Of a stretch of DNA of 64,000 nucleotides, positions 8,918-51,022 are shown in pieces. Made by a program: the position numbers and the translations under genes. Every line of letters starts with the position of its first letter. Position 1 is the first letter of the stretch. This stretch comes from a virus. The stretch is taken from UHGV virus genome UHGV-1366976, one strand, 5' to 3'. The notes beneath the pieces are model-generated. The model was not told the origin of the DNA. It saw only the letters and a list, made by a program, of their open reading frames with translations, and made no database searches.

Positions 8918-11900
8918 ATGAAGATTTGTCCAAATTTAAATGATCCACAAGTAAAAGAAGAATTTGAAACATTAAAAAGATTATTTGGTGAAAATTCTGC
9001 TTATTATTTATGGAATAAAAATAAAGGAAATTTCTTAGATAGGACAGCAGATGGAGATATAAATACTACTTATATAAGTAATTTTGAGAAGTATAATGAT
9101 AAAGAATATGCTTTAAAAACTGCAGCATTAGAATTGTTAAATAGTGAATCTTATAATAATACAGATATTTCTAAAGCTGAACCTGTTAAGAATACTACAA
9201 CATTAGAACTAGGTAAAGAGGCTTTAATGGATATAGTAGAAGGATATCATATGAATAATAAAGGTCAATTTAAATTAGAAGTTGATCAAGCCATTGATTT
9301 AAATAATACTATTAAAGCTGCAGGATTAAAAGATGTAGATGTAGTATCTGTTGGTATTAAATATCAATTGTATGATAAATCTCTAAATAAATATATTACT
9401 GCAAAAGAAATAAAAAATAATCCTAAATATTCTTTATCTGCTTCTGATATTCAGAATTCTATTAAAAATAGAATCTTAGATGAATTAAAAAAACTTGGGG
9501 TAGAAGTTCAAACTGTTGACTCTTTAAAATCTCAATATGGTTTAGATTATTTAGCTGTTGCAGATATTACTAATAAAGCTATTAAATTTGCTAAAAATGA
9601 AATCTCTTTAGAAGCTTTAGGAGAAGAAGGAGCTCACTTCTTTGTAGAAGCTATGAATGATTCTCCATTTGTTAATAGATTGATGAATCTAATTAAACAA
9701 AATAAAGCTTATAAAAATATATTAGGAGATGAATTTAGTGAGTATAATCTAGCTTATAAAGGAGATGAAGATCTTTTAGCTAAAGAAGCTATAGGAAAGC
9801 TTTTGGGACAATATCTTATTGATGTTAATACTTTATCTTATAAACCAGCTAAAAATCTCTTAGAAAGGCTCTGGAATGCCTTAAAATCAATTTTTAGTTC
9901 TAAAGATAATACATCATTAGAAAAACTCTTAAATAATGAATTAAAAGAGTTTGCTCATGATATTTTGACCAATAAAGCAAAAGGATTAAACAAGACTTCT
10001 CTATTAAAATCTTCTATAGATAAATTATATTCTATTGGCAATAGAGCTAAATCTTTAGAAGATGTTATGAATAAAGTTATTGAAACAGAAGCTTTAAGAC
10101 TTAAGATTTATGAAAATCAATTATCTAGTATTAGTACTAAAGAAGCTCAAAGAAAGTTAGTAGTTGAATTAAATGATGCTTTAGAAAAAGGCACTATTAA
10201 AGAAAGAATAGCTTCTTATATTAGTGGAGCTTCTAAAGTAATGCAACAATTAACAGAACAATTAAATAAAGAGAATGAATTGCTCTCTAGTAATTCTATT
10301 TCAAAGTCTGCCCATATTGCTAGAAGAATGAAATCTTTCTTAGTATCTGTACAGCCTATAGTTACAGATATGCAGAGATACCTAAGAGAAGATAAATCAG
10401 ATCCAGAATTTAATAGTAAAATGCATTCTTTAATTTCAGAATTCTTAGTAGAATCTAATGCTATTAATGATGAACTTCAATTAAAGATGTTTAATATTTT
10501 TGCTAAATGGATAGGAACTCAATTTGATAAATTTGCAGAAGTTGAAAATCCATTTGGAGAAAAATTAACTAGACAACAAGTTATTGACAGTTTAACAAAA
10601 GCTAATAAAGATAATAATTGGTTTAATAGATGGATATCTTCAGCAAGTGATAATCCTGATATAGTTATTAATTTAGTAGCCACAGCATTTAAAAACACAG
10701 AAGGTGAAAAAAGAATGAAAGTTAAAGATGTTCATTATCAATTAATAAATGCTGTAAAAGAATTAAATGATGCAGGAATTAAAGATTTTGATTGGATATT
10801 TGAAAAAATAAATGGAGAATATTCACAAAATTTTAATTCAGAATGGGATTATTCTAGTTATGAAGTAGCTAAATCTAAATTGTGGGAAACTTTAAGAAAA
10901 AAATTCCCTGAAAATCCTATAGAGAGAGAAAAAGTTTTTATAGCTAATCCAGACTTACAAAAAGAATGGGCTAAAATATGGTCTGAGTTTAATAGAAAAT
11001 ATGTAGAAAGAGTAGAAGGATGGGAAAATATCTTGTATAATAAAGAAAAAACTTTATCTAGAGGAGAATTCTTAAGATGGAAATCTAAAAATGTTAATGA
11101 ATATATTGATTCTAAAGGTAATACTATACATACTCCTAATGTATATGGAGAATTAGCACATCCTAAACAAAAGAATAAAGCTTTTGAAGAAATTAAAAAT
11201 AATCCTGCTAAATTAAAATTCTATAATACTATTAATAAGATTATGAAAGAATCTCTTAATCTACTACCTGCTGATATAAAAGGAGTAACTCCTAATATGG
11301 CTCCTAGAATTAGAGCAGATTTTAGAGAAAGAGTTGTTCAAGAAGGATTTATTAAAGCTTTTAAAACTAAAGATGCTTTATCTGCAATTCAAATTAGAGC
11401 TGATGAAGATGAATTTGGGTATAGATATGAAGAAAGACTCCAAGATTTTGAAGGTAATACAGTACAATTCTTACCTATTTATTATACAAGTAAGATAAAA
11501 GATGCTACTTTTTCTACAGATTTAATAGGAAATGTACTTAGATTTTATGATATGTCTATTAATTATAACTTAAAGTCTAAAATGATTGATATTCTAGAAG
11601 TAGGGAAGAATATTTTATCAGAAAGATTGGTTAAAATTGGTAGTAATGGATTAGAATCTAAAGTAACTATTTCTGTTCTCACCAGATTAATTCAAAGAGA
11701 AAGTAAAGTTAAAGCAGAAAATCTTTATAAAGGGTATAAAGATCTTATAGATAAAGGATTATATGGAGAGTACCAGAAAAATGAAGGTTCTTTTAAAATA
11801 CCTTTTATCAAAGGAGAATTTGATATTGCTAAATCTATGAATGCAGTGAGAGATGCTGTACAATATATTATGTTGGGAGGTTCTCCATTTGTAGGTTTTG

Positions 11901-17165: not shown

Positions 17166-19193
17166 TTAATGTTGCCATACTGTTGTTATCTCAGGTTCTG
17201 CAATTACAGGAACTACATCTATAAATACTCTACCTGCTTTTTCCATACATTCTTTTAAAGCTTTTGCACATTTATCTGCTATATCTTTGGGAGTTTCTAA
17301 AAGATATTCATCATGGACAAAGTTACTTATTTTAACTTTATCAAATAAATTTTCTTTTAAAATCCAATCAAAAAACCAAACTCCAGCTAGTTTAGACATA
17401 TCTGAAGCACTACCCTGGCAAGGAAAGTTTAATGCTCTTCTTTCTAAATCTCCTCTAAGATTAAAAAATCTTTTACAAGTAGGCTTATAATATGTCAAAA
17501 AATCTTCTGTTTGATGGAATTTATGTTGTTTGTAATTCTCCCACCATTGTTTATCAATAGTTCTAGAAAGTCTTTCATATTCATCAAATATTTGATAATA
17601 TGATCTTCTTCCAGTAACTTTGTTAAAATAGACATATCCATTTTTGACAACAATAGGTTTGATATAGTCAAAATATTCTTTTAATTTAGGAAAAGCTTTC
17701 ATATAGGCATCATAGACTTCATCTCCTTCTTCTTTAGATAATCCTAAATTCTTAGCAATAGTATCACCAACACCACCAAATAAAATTGCAAATTTAGCAC
17801 CTTTAGCTTTACTTCTAAGATCAGGTCTTTCATGTTTTACTTCTTCTTCTGGAATATCTTTTAATTCCTTAGGAAAACATAATTTTGCAGTAAAACTATG
17901 ACCATCTCTTTTTCTAGTAGTATCATTATAAAAATCTATAAGTGCAGGTTCTTTAGATAATTGAGTGTACATTCTATCTTCTTGTTGACTGTAATCACAA
18001 TCTACTAAGATAGTGTTCTCAAATTGATTAGTAAAACATCCTCTAGTTATTTTATCTGAAGGAATATTTTGAAGATTGATACTATTATCATCATCTTTAT
18101 TATCTCCAGAACCACAAGAAGTTCTACCAGTATTCATAATTTGCCAAAATGTAGCATGAATTCTTCCTGTTTTAGGATTAATAGCATCTAAGAAGTTTTG
18201 TCCATATGTAGTTACCAATTTCTGTGCTTTCTTATAATCAATATACATTTGTATAAGAGGAGACACATGAACTTGTTTAACTATATGCTTAGCTTCTATA
18301 GAATCTTTCATTTTTCCTGTTTTCTTATCTCTGACTTTAGTATCTACACCTAGTTCTTTAAAGATAGGAATAATTTGTTTAGAAGAACTCCAATTTAAAC
18401 TACATCTTTTAGCTGCACTAAAAAGATCTAATTGTTTATTAACATATTTATCACCAAATCTTTCAAATACCCATTTGTTCAGAGCAAATTCCATATCTGA
18501 TAGCTTCTTGGAATCATCTTCCATTTTAGCTAGCCATTTTTCTTTATTAAGATAAATACCACAATATTCAATATATGCTAATACCTTAACAAATTTATTG
18601 TCTAATTTAACAGCACCCCATAAACCATCTTCTTTAATTTTAACCATTTGAGAAGTCATTACAGGAATCAGATATTTAACATCATTGGCACCATATTCAA
18701 TAACTTTATCAGTAAGACCTACTCTATTAATAGTTCCTCTAATAGATTTATTTAATAAGACACCACAATATTTAAGAACTAGAACATCTAAAGATTTTCT
18801 AACATAATTTGGTAATTTAACATCATCAAATCCACAATATAATACACCTTCAGCTAAATATGTGTCAAATATATTTTCTAGAATGATATTATGCTTATAG
18901 AAAAATTGAAGATCAAATTTTGCATTTTGTAGTACCCAAACTACATCTTTTCTTAATAATAATGGTTTTAATTTTTCTAATATATTAGGAGAATACTCAA
19001 TCACAAATTGCTGATCAAAATCTCCAAATTGAATAGATAGTAATTCACAAGAATGTGGATCTAGTCCACTAGTTTCAGTATCTAAGGCAATAAATTTATG
19101 ATTTTTAAAATAAGATATAATATCCTGAACTTCTATTTCCTTCCAAACACTACTTCCAACAACTCTTTTCTGCTCAGAACAAAAATGTATCAT
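17166..19193 (-). CDS. Family A DNA polymerase with N-terminal 3'-5' exonuclease domain
   Basis: Exo motif ALDTETSGLD. Pol motif A DYSQQEDR (cf. DYSQIELR), motif B RSKAKGAKFAILFGG, motif C VHDE. Confidence 0.85.
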   Translation of the reverse strand: MIHFCSEQKRVVGSSVWKEIEVQDIISYFKNHKFIALDTETSGLDPHSCELLSIQFGDFDQQFVIEYSPNILEKLKPLLLRKDVVWVLQNAKFDLQFFYKHNIILENIFDTYLAEGVLYCGFDDVKLPNYVRKSLDVLVLKYCGVLLNKSIRGTINRVGLTDKVIEYGANDVKYLIPVMTSQMVKIKEDGLWGAVKLDNKFVKVLAYIEYCGIYLNKEKWLAKMEDDSKKLSDMEFALNKWVFERFGDKYVNKQLDLFSAAKRCSLNWSSSKQIIPIFKELGVDTKVRDKKTGKMKDSIEAKHIVKQVHVSPLIQMYIDYKKAQKLVTTYGQNFLDAINPKTGRIHATFWQIMNTGRTSCGSGDNKDDDNSINLQNIPSDKITRGCFTNQFENTILVDCDYSQQEDRMYTQLSKEPALIDFYNDTTRKRDGHSFTAKLCFPKELKDIPEEEVKHERPDLRSKAKGAKFAILFGGVGDTIAKNLGLSKEEGDEVYDAYMKAFPKLKEYFDYIKPIVVKNGYVYFNKVTGRRSYYQIFDEYERLSRTIDKQWWENYKQHKFHQTEDFLTYYKPTCKRFFNLRGDLERRALNFPCQGSASDMSKLAGVWFFDWILKENLFDKVKISNFVHDEYLLETPKDIADKCAKALKECMEKAGRVFIDVVPVIAEPEITTVWQH

Positions 19194-19473: not shown

Positions 19474-20038
19474 TTAACTGCATTTAGAAAATGAACAGGA
19501 TTTGCATAGGAGGCATCCATTATTGAAGACTAATTTATCTCCACACATAGGACAATTTTCTCCACTTTTAGCATTATTATCAACATACTTAGCAATTGTT
19601 CTTGCTAATACTTTATGAAAAGCTGTTAACTCACCTTTACTTTTCTTTAATTGATCAATTAAAAAGTTAAAACCAACATCACTTCTAATAGATATGGATA
19701 GAATTCTAGTAATCATTTCTAGTTGATCATCCATCACATCTACAAAGTTTTCTATAATAACTTTTCCTTCTTGATCTTGTAGTTGATAATATCCTTTTTT
19801 AATTTTAACAATTTTACCAATATCTGGTAATTTAATATCTTCTGGTGTAGGACATACAAATATTTCATATGGTTTACCTTCATAGAAGCCTAATGCACAA
19901 AGATAATTCTTTCCTTGAACCTTCATATTATGAATATGAGAAAGTAGCTCAGAAGGTCTCTTTGGTGCCTTTCTTGAAGGATCTTTAATCTTATTATCTG
20001 TAGATACTAGAACACCACTTCTACTACCATCTCTATAG
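19474..20038 (-). CDS. nrdJ: Class II ribonucleotide reductase NrdJ, exon 2 (C-terminal part with zinc ribbon)
   Basis: The frame is open upstream of the annotated Met and reads ...C|YRDGSRSGVLVSTDNK... Joining after exon 1 ...KGVTV gives the RNR motif KGVTVYRDGSR. The C-terminus CPMCGDKLVFNNGCLLCKSC matches the cysteine-rich zinc finger known at the C-terminus of class II RNRs. Confidence 0.65.
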
Positions 20039-20089
20039 CATTTCTACCTTTACTTTCATAAAGGATTGGACTATACCATAATCCTATTT

Positions 20090-20884
20090 CTAGGATTCCT
20101 CCATTATAGTCTCTGAACATCTTGTAATCCATTTATATTTATAGCATTCTAAAGGACAGTCTCCTATAAATTTTAAAAATTCTATTAAAGCTTTATTACT
20201 TAAATAATATGCTCCTCCATTATTATACTTATAATAGTTACAATTTCCAAATTTTTTAAACTGAGACAAAATAAATTCATTATAATGTTTACAAGAGATT
20301 TGTCCTCTATGAGTCTTAGACTTAGATTGTCTAGAGCTATTTCCATCTCCAATATACCACCATAATAACATTATCTTGTCTAAAATAATATTAGGAAGAA
20401 TTTTTCTATTTTGTTTTTGCTGAATCATTATTTCTTTTGGATAGAATAAATTATATAGTTCTAGAAACTCTCTTCTTGTTTCAGTTTGAAAACTATAGCA
20501 TTCAGAATTTTTTCTATAGAAAATCTTTGAACATTTTATATTATTTTTCTCAAAAATAGAAATTAAATATTCATGTACTTCTTTATGTTTATCTGTATAA
20601 GAAAAGTAGGGGTTTCTTAATTTTTTACTTATTCTAAGACTTCCATCTCCTAAAATTAAACCAATAAGTAAAGATCTAAATTCTGTACTAAATTTAATTT
20701 CTGGTTTCTCAACAAAGCTTTCTTTAACAGATCTTACTTTTATAGAATTTTTAATCAAATGATATCTTAAAGTTCCTAAATTTATATTATACTTTATAGA
20801 AAGTTTACTCATACTTTCTCCATCTAAATACTCTTTAATGATATCATTCCAAAATGAATTAGAATTTTGCTGCTGATTTTCCAT
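20090..20884 (-). CDS. LAGLIDADG homing endonuclease (intron-encoded)
   Basis: Two LAGLIDADG motifs, LLIGLILGDGSL and LLWWYIGDGNSS. Located wholly inside the nrdJ intron. Confidence 0.8.
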   Translation of the reverse strand: MENQQQNSNSFWNDIIKEYLDGESMSKLSIKYNINLGTLRYHLIKNSIKVRSVKESFVEKPEIKFSTEFRSLLIGLILGDGSLRISKKLRNPYFSYTDKHKEVHEYLISIFEKNNIKCSKIFYRKNSECYSFQTETRREFLELYNLFYPKEIMIQQKQNRKILPNIILDKIMLLWWYIGDGNSSRQSKSKTHRGQISCKHYNEFILSQFKKFGNCNYYKYNNGGAYYLSNKALIEFLKFIGDCPLECYKYKWITRCSETIMEES

Positions 20885-20917
20885 TTCTAAAAATTAAAAG
20901 GTTTTACAATAATTATA

Positions 20918-20949
20918 CAAAGATAGTATAAAAATTATAAAATTCCAAA
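20918..20949 (-). promoter_or_regulatory. Bacteroidota-type promoter (-33 TTTG / -7 TATCTTTG) driving the intronic HEG
   Basis: On the - strand, TTTG (20949-20946), 20 nt, then TATCTTTG (20925-20918), 33 nt upstream of the HEG ATG. Same motif and spacing as at 50070 and 50991. Confidence 0.45.
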
Positions 20950-21087
20950 TAATTTTTTCATCTTAACATTTTTCTAACATTCACACTTATCCTCTCAGAT
21001 TATGTTGTAGTAGTTAAGCTTTAGGAGGTTCCAGCAATTTAGAAGGTTATTCAATATACATTACTGTATAAGGCTGCCTATTTGTTA

Positions 21088-23066
21088 ACAGTAACTCCTT
21101 TAAGTCCCATTTTATAAGCATTAAGATAAATTTGTTTTACAACATCTTTACTTACATCTGAGGCTAAATTAATAGTTGTGCTAATTGAACTAGTAGTATA
21201 TTTTTGGATAATAGCTTGAATCTCTAATCTTGTTTGCCAAGGAATATCTGCTGCTTCATTATTATAATAAGGAGAAGATTTAAAGAGAGTATTAGTCATA
21301 CTCTTAGATAGTTCATTAAACTTCTTTCCAGTTGTTATTTCACAGAATTTCTGGAATCCTTTATGAGCAACTGTAAATACTTTAAATTTCTCTTTAGTAT
21401 TAGGATCTATAAAATCATATTTTTCATCAAAAGCATTTACTTTAACTCTTCTATCATACAATGTTTTAAATACTGGTTCTATACCACTAGTAGTTTGAGT
21501 TAGTAATGATCCTGATCCAACTGGAGCAACAGTACTTAATGAAACATTTCTTCTTCCTAGTTCTTTCATTCTGGAAACTAGTTTAGGATAATTATTTATT
21601 AAAAATTCATACCATTGATTACTAGGTTTATCTTCAGGATATTCTAAATTATAATCATAGTCTAAGAAAGTTCCTCTAAGATAAGCTAAATCTATACTAG
21701 CTTCTAATTCAGCTTTAAACTTAGTTTCCATAATAGATTCTACTAGATAATGAGAATCTTTAAATGATAGATTCATTGCAGCAATAGTATCTCCTAAAGC
21801 TGTGAATCCACATCCAATTCTTCTACCTTTTCTAGCTGCATCAAGAACTCTTTTCCAAAGTTCTATTTCACTTTTAGCATCTGAATGATTGATTATATTT
21901 TCAATATTTTTACATTCCAAATCAATAATATCATCCAGAAAGATTACATGTTCATATGCTATTTTTCTAAATAGTTCATAATCAAATGAGGCTTCACTAG
22001 TAAAAGGATTTTTTACAAATGATAAAAGATTAATATGAGATAATCTACATGAATCAGCATCACCTAATGGCTGTTCTCCACATGGATTAGTTGTAACAGC
22101 TTTTAATCTAGGATATACAGAAGCAGGATCATAATTAATAATATTATCCCATAATAGTATTCCAGGCTCAGCTGTTTTCCAAGCACAATCAATAATTAAA
22201 TCTAACAATTCATTTGCTTTTACCTTTTTAAAATAAGATTTTCCTGCATAATATAACTTATTATATTCAAAATCTTTAGAATTCCAATTAATAAATTCTC
22301 CTAATCTTGAATTAATAGGCCATTTTAGTAACCAATCTTCATTTTTTTGAGCAGCTGTTACTAAATTTCTACATAATTTCACAGAAATATTAGCTCCTGT
22401 AACTTTAGTTAAATCTTGTTTTATTGTAACAAATTCAGATATATCTGGATGAATATCTGACATACATAACATTAATGCTCCTCTTCTTCCATTTTGACCT
22501 ATAGTTTTAACATCTGTAGAATATAATTCCATAAAACTAGGAGCTCCTGTACTTGTTTTAGAAGCATTATTTACCATAGCTCCATTAGGTCTTAAATGAT
22601 CAAGATGTGTTCCAACACCACCCCTTCTCATAAATAAATAAGCCATCTCTTTGCCTTTATCCATAATGCTTTCCATTTTGTCTTTTGGTCCTTCAATACC
22701 AAAACAATTAGCTAGAGAAACATTATTAGCTTTACCTAGAGATGCCATAATAGATCCTCCTGGTACAATATATTTAAAATTTTTAAATAATTGAAACCAT
22801 TTATCTCTGATTTGATAATCATTAGACTCACATAGATCTCTTACATAATTTCTACCTAGATCAGAAAGTTTATCTATATTTATTTTTTTATTTACTAATT
22901 CTTTTTGATACTTTCTTTCTATAAGAGCAATATTATAAGCTAACCTCTGATGCATATTATCAGGTGTTTTTTCATCTTCACCTGCATATTTAGATAAAAA
23001 TACTTTAGCTGCTAATTCATCTCCTTCAAAATATTTCACACTACACTCTTCAGCTGTTTTCTTCAT
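21088..23066 (-). CDS. nrdJ: Class II ribonucleotide reductase NrdJ, exon 1
   Basis: Active-site loop TNPCGEQPLG (class II NPCGE signature), large alpha/beta-barrel-sized ORF. The ORF stops abruptly inside the conserved KGVTVYRDGSR motif. Confidence 0.7.
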
Positions 23067-50069: not shown

Positions 50070-50101
50070 TTTGCAAAATCAAAAATATTATATTATCTTT
50101 G
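50070..50101 (+). promoter_or_regulatory. Bacteroidota-type promoter TTTG-N20-TATCTTTG
   Basis: TTTG 50070-50073, 20-nt spacer, TATCTTTG 50094-50101. The ATG of a 55-aa ORF follows at 50117. Confidence 0.5.
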
Positions 50102-50990: not shown

Positions 50991-51022
50991 TTTGGAATAG
51001 TCTAAAAATAATATTATCTTTG
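50991..51022 (+). promoter_or_regulatory. Bacteroidota-type promoter TTTG-N20-TATCTTTG
   Basis: TTTG 50991-50994, 20-nt spacer, TATCTTTG 51015-51022. The flanking sequence AATATTATCTTTGTA is shared with the 50.1 kb copy. Confidence 0.5.

Follow-up and report, generated by a model that had tools for sequence, protein, structure and literature searches.

A probable mobile group I intron with a LAGLIDADG endonuclease reading frame in the nrdJ gene of a crAss-like phage

The window analysed here is a stretch of 64,000 nucleotides (nt) of the virus genome UHGV-1366976. In it the gene for a class II ribonucleotide reductase (RNR), nrdJ, appears as two open reading frames (ORFs), with a third between them that resembles a LAGLIDADG homing endonuclease. 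All features of the nrdJ locus are on the minus strand, and coordinates are those of the window. The locus raises the question of whether nrdJ is divided, decayed or interrupted by an intron. An earlier reading of the sequence (the original prediction) proposed a group I intron inside the motif KGVTVYRDGSR, carrying an endonuclease under its own promoter. The best explanation, and one that we consider very probable, is indeed that a mobile group I intron with a LAGLIDADG endonuclease splits the nrdJ gene of a crAss-like phage. The features are collected in Table 1.

The reductase gene and the boundaries of the insert

The upstream ORF (23066..21078, 662 amino acids (aa)) matches the RNR barrel domain (Pfam Ribonuc_red_lgC, 3.8e-80). 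It terminates with ...GLKGVTVNK, two codons past GVTV, the unspliced exon 1 frame continuing only as far as a TAG at 21080..21078. The downstream ORF (19926..19474, 150 aa) belongs to a frame without stops as far back as 20043, which reads YRDGSRSGVL from 20037; the TAG that limits it lies three codons before the Y, and the frame after this TAG reads KCYRDGSRSGVL... Both the early stop and the upstream YRDGSRSGVL frame had been described in the original prediction. Exon 1 ends in ...ACU GU, the last base of the intron is G, and exon 2 opens with C UAU AGA, so that the insertion point is between bases 2 and 3 of the Val codon in ...GVTV/YRDGSR... (a slash marks the junction here and below). Joining 21088 to 20038 gives an ORF of 2,544 nt reading ...MGLKGVTV/YRDGSRSGVL..., and the 847 aa that it encodes confirm the predicted length of about 847.

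On sequence comparison the spliced product is assigned to the class II adenosylcobalamin-dependent RNR, NrdJ. The match to the NCBIfam equivalog TIGR02504 NrdJ_Z (412.2 bits, cut-off 399.95) is a single stretch, residues 18-669, which crosses the junction at residue 660/661, and class I RNR models score far below NrdJ_Z. The match to PRK08665 spans residues 29-847. The best match in the PDB is the NrdJ of T. maritima (1xje), at 6e-44 versus 1e-19 for class I, and the alignment is unbroken through ...RGITVYRDGS. The NrdJ_Z and T. maritima matches thus bear out the proposed class II identity, and the alignment to NrdJ is continuous through the junction. A 221-aa junction-spanning tblastn query gave one uninterrupted high-scoring segment pair in 52 phage records, nearly all of them crAss-like genomes. 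The best NrdJ matches are from Crassvirales (cr108_1 of Steigviridae at 46.5%, and relatives of crAss001) and Bacteroides phages, and the phage itself is judged by these matches to be crAss-like.

The spliced product contains the catalytic cysteine loop TTNPCGEQ (residues 325-332). Exon 2 supplies a TSCPD-like region, which is a weak match, and the expected Cys-rich zinc ribbon (CxxC...CxxCxxC), with CPMCGDKLVFNNGCLLCKSCSFSKC at the C-terminus. The function of the C-terminal zinc finger has reportedly been described. The last ~190 nt of nrdJ (19474-19666), which encode the zinc ribbon, are ~80-81% identical to four relatives (L005, L006, L008, L009) and 93% to a fifth (L010), unlike the remainder of the gene, which is 95-100% identical across them. 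This tract at the cysteine-rich tail is a putative local mosaic or recombination tract.

We regard intron-less alleles as the strongest evidence for the junction. Among the relative phage contigs compared (the near-identical ones being from IMG/VR), L006, L009 and L010 match the window phage in DNA at 95-98% identity, and L007 does so at 75%. In each of the four, nrdJ is uninterrupted and reads ...GGAGTAACTGT/CTATAGRGATGG... The predicted ligated exons are GGAGTTACTGT/CTATAGAGATGG, and the intron-less junction ACTGT/CTATAGAG equals the predicted ligated sequence exactly. Moving either boundary by a single base loses the sequence of the intron-less allele. Because no other placement reproduces it, the insert is exactly the 1,049 nt from 21087 to 20039, and the junction is identical to the one originally proposed. 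The KGVTVYRDGSR motif into which it falls is conserved, although to call it the most conserved motif in RNR, as had been done, is an overstatement: the translated DNA of three relatives reads GVTTYVDGSR (L011), GVTCYRQGSR (L012) and GTTIYRESSR (L014). Besides this motif, the nrdJ family has its second hot spot at the catalytic NPCGE site.

A pair of ORFs could also be read as a split nrdJ that needs no RNA splicing, a free-standing endonuclease having cut the gene in two, with the polypeptides then assembling. Functional split RNR genes without an intron are documented, for example nrdA-a/nrdA-b of Aeromonas phage Aeh1, in which the gene is split by mobE and works as two polypeptides (PMC3653736). 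There is also a free-standing homolog of the endonuclease just downstream of an intact nrdJ in one relative (L029, discussed below). However, the first 37 conserved codons of exon 2 (YRDGSR...HN) have no start codon, and no ATG, GTG or TTG was found in the exon 2 frame before 19926. Moreover, as described below, the insert contains a complete covarying group I core in which the guide covaries with exon bases, and both ends of the endonuclease ORF extend into ribozyme helices. A split gene of this kind is hardly credible here, and the interrupted gene is preferred.

Table 1. Positions of the features of the nrdJ locus in the window. IGS, internal guide sequence.
Feature	Position	Strand	Remarks
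nrdJ exon 1	21088..23066	-	Codons 1-659 and first two bases of codon 660
Group I intron (predicted)	20039..21087	-	1,049 nt; starts UAACAAAUAGGCAG, ends ...GUAGAAAUG, terminal G at 20039
nrdJ exon 2	19474..20038	-	Last base of codon 660, 187 codons and stop
IGS AUAG/GCAG	21074..21081	-	GCAG 21077..21074, AUAG 21081..21078
P1	exon CUGU 21091..21088 / GCAG 21077..21074	-	U.G at splice site
P10	IGS AUAG 21081..21078 / exon 2 CUAU	-	First pair covaries
P2 hairpin UAUACA-GUAA-UGUAUA	21055..21070	-	6/6 pairs with compensatory changes, 7 introns
P3	21046..21042 / 20102..20098	-	Compensatory changes
P3 5' strand and P4-P5-P5a-P5b domain	20871..21046	-	12-intron covariation
P4	21036..21031 / 20876..20871	-	12-intron alignment
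P5	21026..21024 / 20882..20880	-	12-intron alignment
P5a	21018..21013 / 20967..20962	-	12-intron alignment
P5b	21005..20983	-	12-intron alignment; followed by ~75-nt AT-rich expansion
Promoter-like element TTTG-N20-TATCTTTG	20918..20949	-	In P5 expansion, 33 nt 5' of endonuclease ATG (20884)
LAGLIDADG homing endonuclease ORF (predicted), 264 aa	20090..20884	-	PF03161, phrog_11023
P6/P6a stem	20117..20870	-	Closes ~720-nt loop holding endonuclease body
P6	GCA 20870..20868 / UGU 20119..20117	-	Paired in 7/7
P6a	UUCUAAUUC 20864..20856 / GGAUUACAA 20130..20122	-	7-intron pair count
3' catalytic core	20047..20116	-	Rfam-aligned segment
J6/7	20116..20112	-	Rfam alignment
P7	20111..20106 / 20074..20069	-	Invariant in 7 introns
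P8 (GAAA loop)	20096..20081	-	Compensatory changes
P9 (GAAA loop)	20064..20047	-	Compensatory changes

The ribozyme and its covariation

A local scan of 1.5 kb with Rfam RF00028 gave a match at 20196..20047 (29.2 bits, E=4e-5), which covers the 3' core only. It convincingly aligns J6/7-P7 (UCAGAGACUAU), P3', P8, J8/7-P7' (GGUAUAGUCC) and P9. The model also places a 5' half within the end of the endonuclease ORF; this placement is spurious, the true P2-P5 being upstream of the ORF. There, 21077..20936 has 71-83% nt identity to phage records, with E values down to 2e-14, and at E<=1e-6 the records matched by this 5' half number 55. The matched introns include those of Acinetobacter ME3 and Pseudaeromonas KLEP7, both ORF-less, with Rfam scores of 81 and 86.7 bits respectively, and that of Salmonella phage GE_vB_MG, with 62 bits. 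A GenBank phage megablast of the locus gave no match, and a regular-expression scan of the window for the core motifs of this intron family found no second intron.

Covariation was analysed in two alignments, the controls being the same pairings with the partners slid. The first covers the P4-P5 domain of 12 introns: 94.5% of cells are paired in P4, P5, P5a and P5b, versus 34-36% in the slid controls, and 14 pairs have compensatory changes. The window copy forms all 26/26 pairs of this domain. The second uses the seven introns at this nrdJ site (the window and L024, L025, L028, L030, L031 and L032). The P5 domain and endonuclease loop were removed, the remainder was aligned, and pairs were counted on a hand-drawn structure of P1-P10. 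Here 97.2% of cells are paired versus 32-47% in slid controls, a difference inflated by a structure drawn partly from the window intron, which does not affect the compensatory counts. There are 20 compensatory pairs, in P1, P2, P3, P6, P8, P9 and P10. In P6/P6a there is one compensatory pair, with U.G<->C-G swaps at the tip, and the pairs of P6a are formed in 7/7 introns except for pair 88-108. The invariance of P7 is uninformative for covariation.

The splice sites are part of the same pattern. All seven same-site introns have the U.G pair at the splice site, and the column of the terminal G (G191 of the first sequence in the seven-intron alignment, A3) does not vary. In exon 1 the wobble base of a Thr codon, at position -3, is U, C or G and covaries with the IGS base (A, G or C); in exon 2 the base at +1, C or A, changes together with its P10 partner (G or U). 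Without splicing of the RNA, a guide that co-evolves with silent exon positions would be difficult to account for, and because of this exon-IGS covariation we infer ongoing selection for splicing.

Two candidate helices were rejected. CUUAAC/GUUAAG was considered as P4; the comparative alignment identifies it as P5a, the real P4' being UCAGCA, in the first endonuclease codons. ACAGUAA was considered as P1 with exon UUACUGU; this would give U-A at the splice site, and the segment is instead the 5' arm and loop of P2. P7.1/P7.2 are absent between P7 and P3', unlike in ME3 or the Kayvirus tail-region intron.

An alternative to a working ribozyme is a decayed intron relic that no longer splices, with nrdJ a pseudogene. 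Several observations weigh against a functional intron. Scanning all of the window with Rfam gave no match at the gathering cut-off or at E<=0.1, and the 29.2 bits of the local match fall short of the gathering score of 50; P1 is only 4 bp, and P10 is weak in relatives, with 2-3 bp in L028, L031 and L032. A relic would also fit with the lack of the P7.1/P7.2 present in several relatives, and splicing is itself deduced from the sequence. The score, however, has a simpler explanation. Among the introns of the family that were scanned, gathering is reached only where the ORF is short or absent (62-90 bits), while introns with large endonuclease inserts are missed by Rfam at the loci tested. Because other ORF-bearing members are also missed, the sub-threshold score reflects a limit of the model when faced with a 720-nt insert and not a defect of the intron. 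In addition, all core helices are intact in the window copy; three contigs (the window, L005 and L008) keep both exons and the intron open and conserved; in the same family, the intron in the lysin gene of Staphylococcus phage phiSA_BS1 (L018) apparently also runs P7, P3', P8 without P7.1/P7.2 (by eye); and the exon-IGS covariation implies that selection for splicing is ongoing. Decay is therefore very improbable, and the insert is best taken as a real group I intron, as originally proposed: the 3' core is detected by Rfam, albeit below gathering, the 5' half is homologous to verified phage introns, and the helices P1-P10 are present with covariation.

On this evidence the nrdJ pre-mRNA would fold into a canonical P1-P10 ribozyme. 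Free guanosine would attack 3' of the U in the U.G pair of P1, the 3' splice site would be set by the terminal G of the intron, with exon 2 aligned by P10, and the ligated mRNA would encode the 847-aa adenosylcobalamin-dependent RNR.

The endonuclease, its expression and its mobility

The ORF in the intron matches PF03161 LAGLIDADG_2 (8.9e-12, 45.7 bits, cut-off 25) and phrog_11023 (5.8e-15), in support of the original prediction. The match in the PDB to the intron-encoded endonuclease 6x1j is weak. The translation contains two LAGLIDADG motifs, LILGDGSL and WYIGDGNS, and the protein would accordingly be a single-chain, two-motif enzyme, with predicted activity and target. Its N-terminal stretch SMSKLSIKYNINLGTLRYHLIK looks, by eye, like a helix-turn-helix.

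The frame is fused to the ribozyme at both ends. Its ATG coincides with the conserved AUGG in the P5' strand, J5/4-P4'-P6 is formed by codons 2-6 (ENQQQ), and the body of the enzyme is in loop L6a. The 3' end of the ORF traverses P6a', P6', J6/7, P7 and P3', the last codons (SETIMEES) being J6/7-P7-P3', and the stop TAG (20092..20090) is within P8. In the intron of Salmonella phage GE_vB_MG (L003, 1667-1921), a different ORF (MDNQQ...), which appears frameshifted, starts at the same P5' AUGG. The sequences suggest that the AUG of P5' has been recruited repeatedly as a start by different intron ORFs.

Metagenomes contain 52 clusters of endonuclease homologs. Six of the homologs (P0002, P0010, P0042, P0016, P0021 and P0012, in L024, L025, L028, L030, L031 and L032 respectively) are 45-84% identical to the query and are flanked by an RNR barrel ORF on one side and a C-terminal ORF on the other, and the DNA of these six contigs shows the inserts to be at the identical nrdJ position. 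A further homolog is free-standing: in L029 (1501-2298), P0009, with 54% identity to the query, begins 15 nt past the stop of an uninterrupted nrdJ, in which the site reads GTAACTGT/ATATAGAGATGG. It has no ribozyme core, and lacks the N- and C-terminal residues that ribozyme helices encode in the intronic copies. This arrangement fits the capture of a free-standing endonuclease gene by an intron, though it may equally reflect an escape from one.

These observations allow a tentative proposal, in our view somewhat less than an even chance: that the endonuclease gene has been welded onto the ribozyme, such that its last ~9 codons and stop are J6/7-P7-P3'-P8, that splicing and endonuclease expression are mutually exclusive and occur on separate RNAs, and that a free-standing gene was captured by an ORF-less intron. 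A conserved Bacteroidota-type promoter in the P5 expansion would yield a dedicated transcript, which would have no P1-P5 and would be unable to fold as a ribozyme. If the proposal is correct, the fused frame together with the L029 homolog would document how an intron that had no ORF took up its endonuclease gene from a free-standing source.

What is least certain at this locus is how the endonuclease is expressed: it could have a promoter to itself, or depend on the pre-mRNA or on the excised intron. The original prediction held that the gene is driven by its own promoter. The motif is present: upstream of the endonuclease, inside the variable P5 expansion, the sequence conforms to the Bacteroidota sigma-A consensus (-33 TTTG / -7 TAnnTTTG, ~19-21 nt spacing). 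Matches to TTTG-N20-TATCTTTG, an exact pattern defined from the intron instance itself and to that extent favourable to it, number 3 in the window versus 0.03 expected. Apart from the intron instance, the copies are at 50070-50101 and 50991-51022 on the plus strand; both fall between genes, 15 and 29 nt 5' of ORF starts, and are likely to be phage promoters of Bacteroidota type. The plus-strand ORFs downstream of them (50117 and 51052) are near a strand-switch region. In 6/7 same-site introns TAnnTTTG is kept 31-41 nt 5' of the ATG, within a P5 expansion that is otherwise barely alignable.

The alternative is that nrdJ pre-mRNA, or the intron once excised, serves as the message for the endonuclease, and that the match to the promoter pattern is incidental. 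Consistent with this, the loose pattern TTTG-N18-21-TAnnTTTG is not enriched in the window (5 versus 2.7 expected), L030 has no exact TAnnTTTG, the spacer in L025 is 15 nt, and the -33 TTTG overlaps AUUUGGAAU, a segment conserved in non-Bacteroidota phage introns too. A sigma-70 scan, with 41 sites versus 36 expected, was uninformative. The exact copies at two intergenic sites before ORFs and the retention of TAnnTTTG amid unalignable sequence speak against coincidence, however, and in a folded pre-mRNA the AUG would be paired in P5, which speaks against translation from that RNA. We therefore consider the incidental match unlikely, although a good deal less so than a split or decayed gene, and an active internal promoter of the Bacteroidota type probable. 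A driving role for the motif, argued from its recurrence and conservation, is thus plausible rather than proven.

With regard to mobility, the intron is identical at 1049/1049 positions among the window, L005 and L008. The 179 exon bases 5' of it are also identical in the three, while exon segments farther away differ by 2-4%. The intron is precisely absent from phages that are 95-98% identical, and diverged copies are present at the same nrdJ site in divergent phages. In a small sample of contigs, this pattern is the expected signature of homing with co-conversion, and both the presence/absence polymorphism and the identical intron in differing flanks agree with the homing originally suggested. 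The endonuclease would cut the intron-less nrdJ of co-infecting relatives at GGAGTAACTGT/CTATAGAGATGG, and repair from the intron-containing allele would transfer the intron, together with adjoining exon sequence, to the allele that was cut.

Other inserts were noted in these phages. An in-frame nrdJ intein with a LAGLIDADG domain is at the catalytic-cysteine motif in L009 (4988-5938) and also in L010, L011, L024 and L030; its sequence, TNP[C VTGDTK...LSGLIDSDGT...GVITAQ]CGEQ, apparently ends in Gln, not the usual Asn. The nrdJ of L024 has both the NPC/GE intein and the V/YRDGS intron. In L012 (4985-5807), and also in L013 and L014, an out-of-frame insert of ~820 nt with a 211-aa LAGLIDADG-like ORF is at or next to NPC/GE, and this looks like a putative coincidence of intron and intein at one site. 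The related crAss-like contig L012 also has an ORF-less group I intron (10251-10503, Rfam 85.8 bits) a few kb downstream of nrdJ. In DNA polymerase A of L011, a ~900-nt insert (9672-10568) at the conserved motif ...NFVHD/E... contains a 233-aa LAGLIDADG ORF, and Rfam weakly detects a group I 3' core in it (27 bits). L005 and L008 apparently carry this insert too, and the window polA (17166..19193) is uninterrupted at the equivalent point, ~17309.

Comparison with known systems

According to passages of Yutin et al. 2021 (PMC7886860), group I introns with LAGLIDADG ORFs, and inteins, have already been reported in crAss-like core genes, namely those for MCP, PolB, primase, ATP_43b and TerL and the RNAP block. 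An nrdJ intron at V/YRDGS is not among the intron and intein genes in those passages. In GenBank phages, the matches listed for the junction-spanning query are all single and uninterrupted, and no deposited intron was seen at this site. With its hot spots NPC/GE and V/YRDGS, nrdJ joins the crAss-like core genes that have been colonised by introns and inteins.

Some crAss-like records in GenBank do have a split nrdJ (cr108_1 and PhiCrAssBcn14-18), in the form of two coding sequences with no annotated intron, the split being elsewhere in the gene. In cr108_1 (MT774385, L033, 1486-5094), two coding sequences named vitamin B12-dependent ribonucleotide reductase flank a 308-aa hypothetical protein, and this split is probably an unannotated intron at another site. 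A similar two-piece nrdJ match is seen in PhiCrAssBcn14-18 and in DAC16/DAC23/SJC03. For the window the appropriate annotation would be one 847-aa NrdJ with an intron, not a truncated RNR and an orphan 150-aa ORF, and the same correction would apply to the split nrdJ of deposited crAss-like genomes such as cr108_1. Because those ORF-bearing introns of this phage family that were scanned escaped the Rfam model, the intron load of gut phages is probably under-counted. The seven same-site introns, whose LAGLIDADG enzymes are 45-84% identical, form a natural series that could be mined, with a known target of ~20 bp.

By sequence, the closest introns are those of Staphylococcus Twort-like/Kayvirus phages, Listeria LPJP1, Acinetobacter ME3, Aeromonas/Pseudaeromonas phages and other crAss-like phages (ctcc615 and Rudgehvirus). 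They have 71-83% nt identity over P2-P5b, and the P4-P5-P5a-P5b architecture, with its covariation, is held in common. However, they are in other genes (tail tube region, lysin, rpoB, helicase), and their endonucleases are GIY-YIG, HNH or none, and are placed elsewhere in the intron.

The T4 td and nrdB introns (I-TevI, I-TevIII) resemble the present one in having an endonuclease ORF looped out of P6a. For the T4 intron ORFs, expression is reportedly uncoupled from that of the host gene and driven by intron-internal promoters, which the expression proposed here would resemble. The T4 enzymes are GIY-YIG and HNH, whereas the window enzyme is LAGLIDADG; the T4 introns have P7.1/P7.2, whereas here P7 leads directly to P3'; and the T4 targets are nrdB, nrdD and td, whereas here the target is a class II nrdJ in a Bacteroidota-type phage with the TTTG/TAnnTTTG motif. 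The free-standing homolog in L029 resembles another known arrangement, that of the cyanophage psbA intron and F-CphI, where a free-standing endonuclease accompanies an intron, as in the intron-invasion model of Bonocora & Shub.

The RNR context of the T4 introns has been described (PMC3653736), and RNR genes are a classic phage refuge for introns and inteins (PMC3653736, PMC2248736). Those of Bacillus, namely bnrdE/bnrdF of SPbeta and nrdE/nrdF of the B. cereus group (I-BanI, I-BthII), have introns and inteins at conserved motifs and, likewise, presence/absence polymorphism among close strains (PMC2248736; PMC3653736). Several mobile elements in one gene are common to both, here an intein at NPC/GE and an intron at V/YRDGS. 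The Bacillus cases differ in being class Ib genes of Firmicutes and their prophages, with another endonuclease family, whereas here it is a class II nrdJ of a crAss-like phage. The kind of element described here is thus already known. It is a textbook case with good comparative support, which will not surprise a specialist and which leaves the current understanding of group I introns unchanged.

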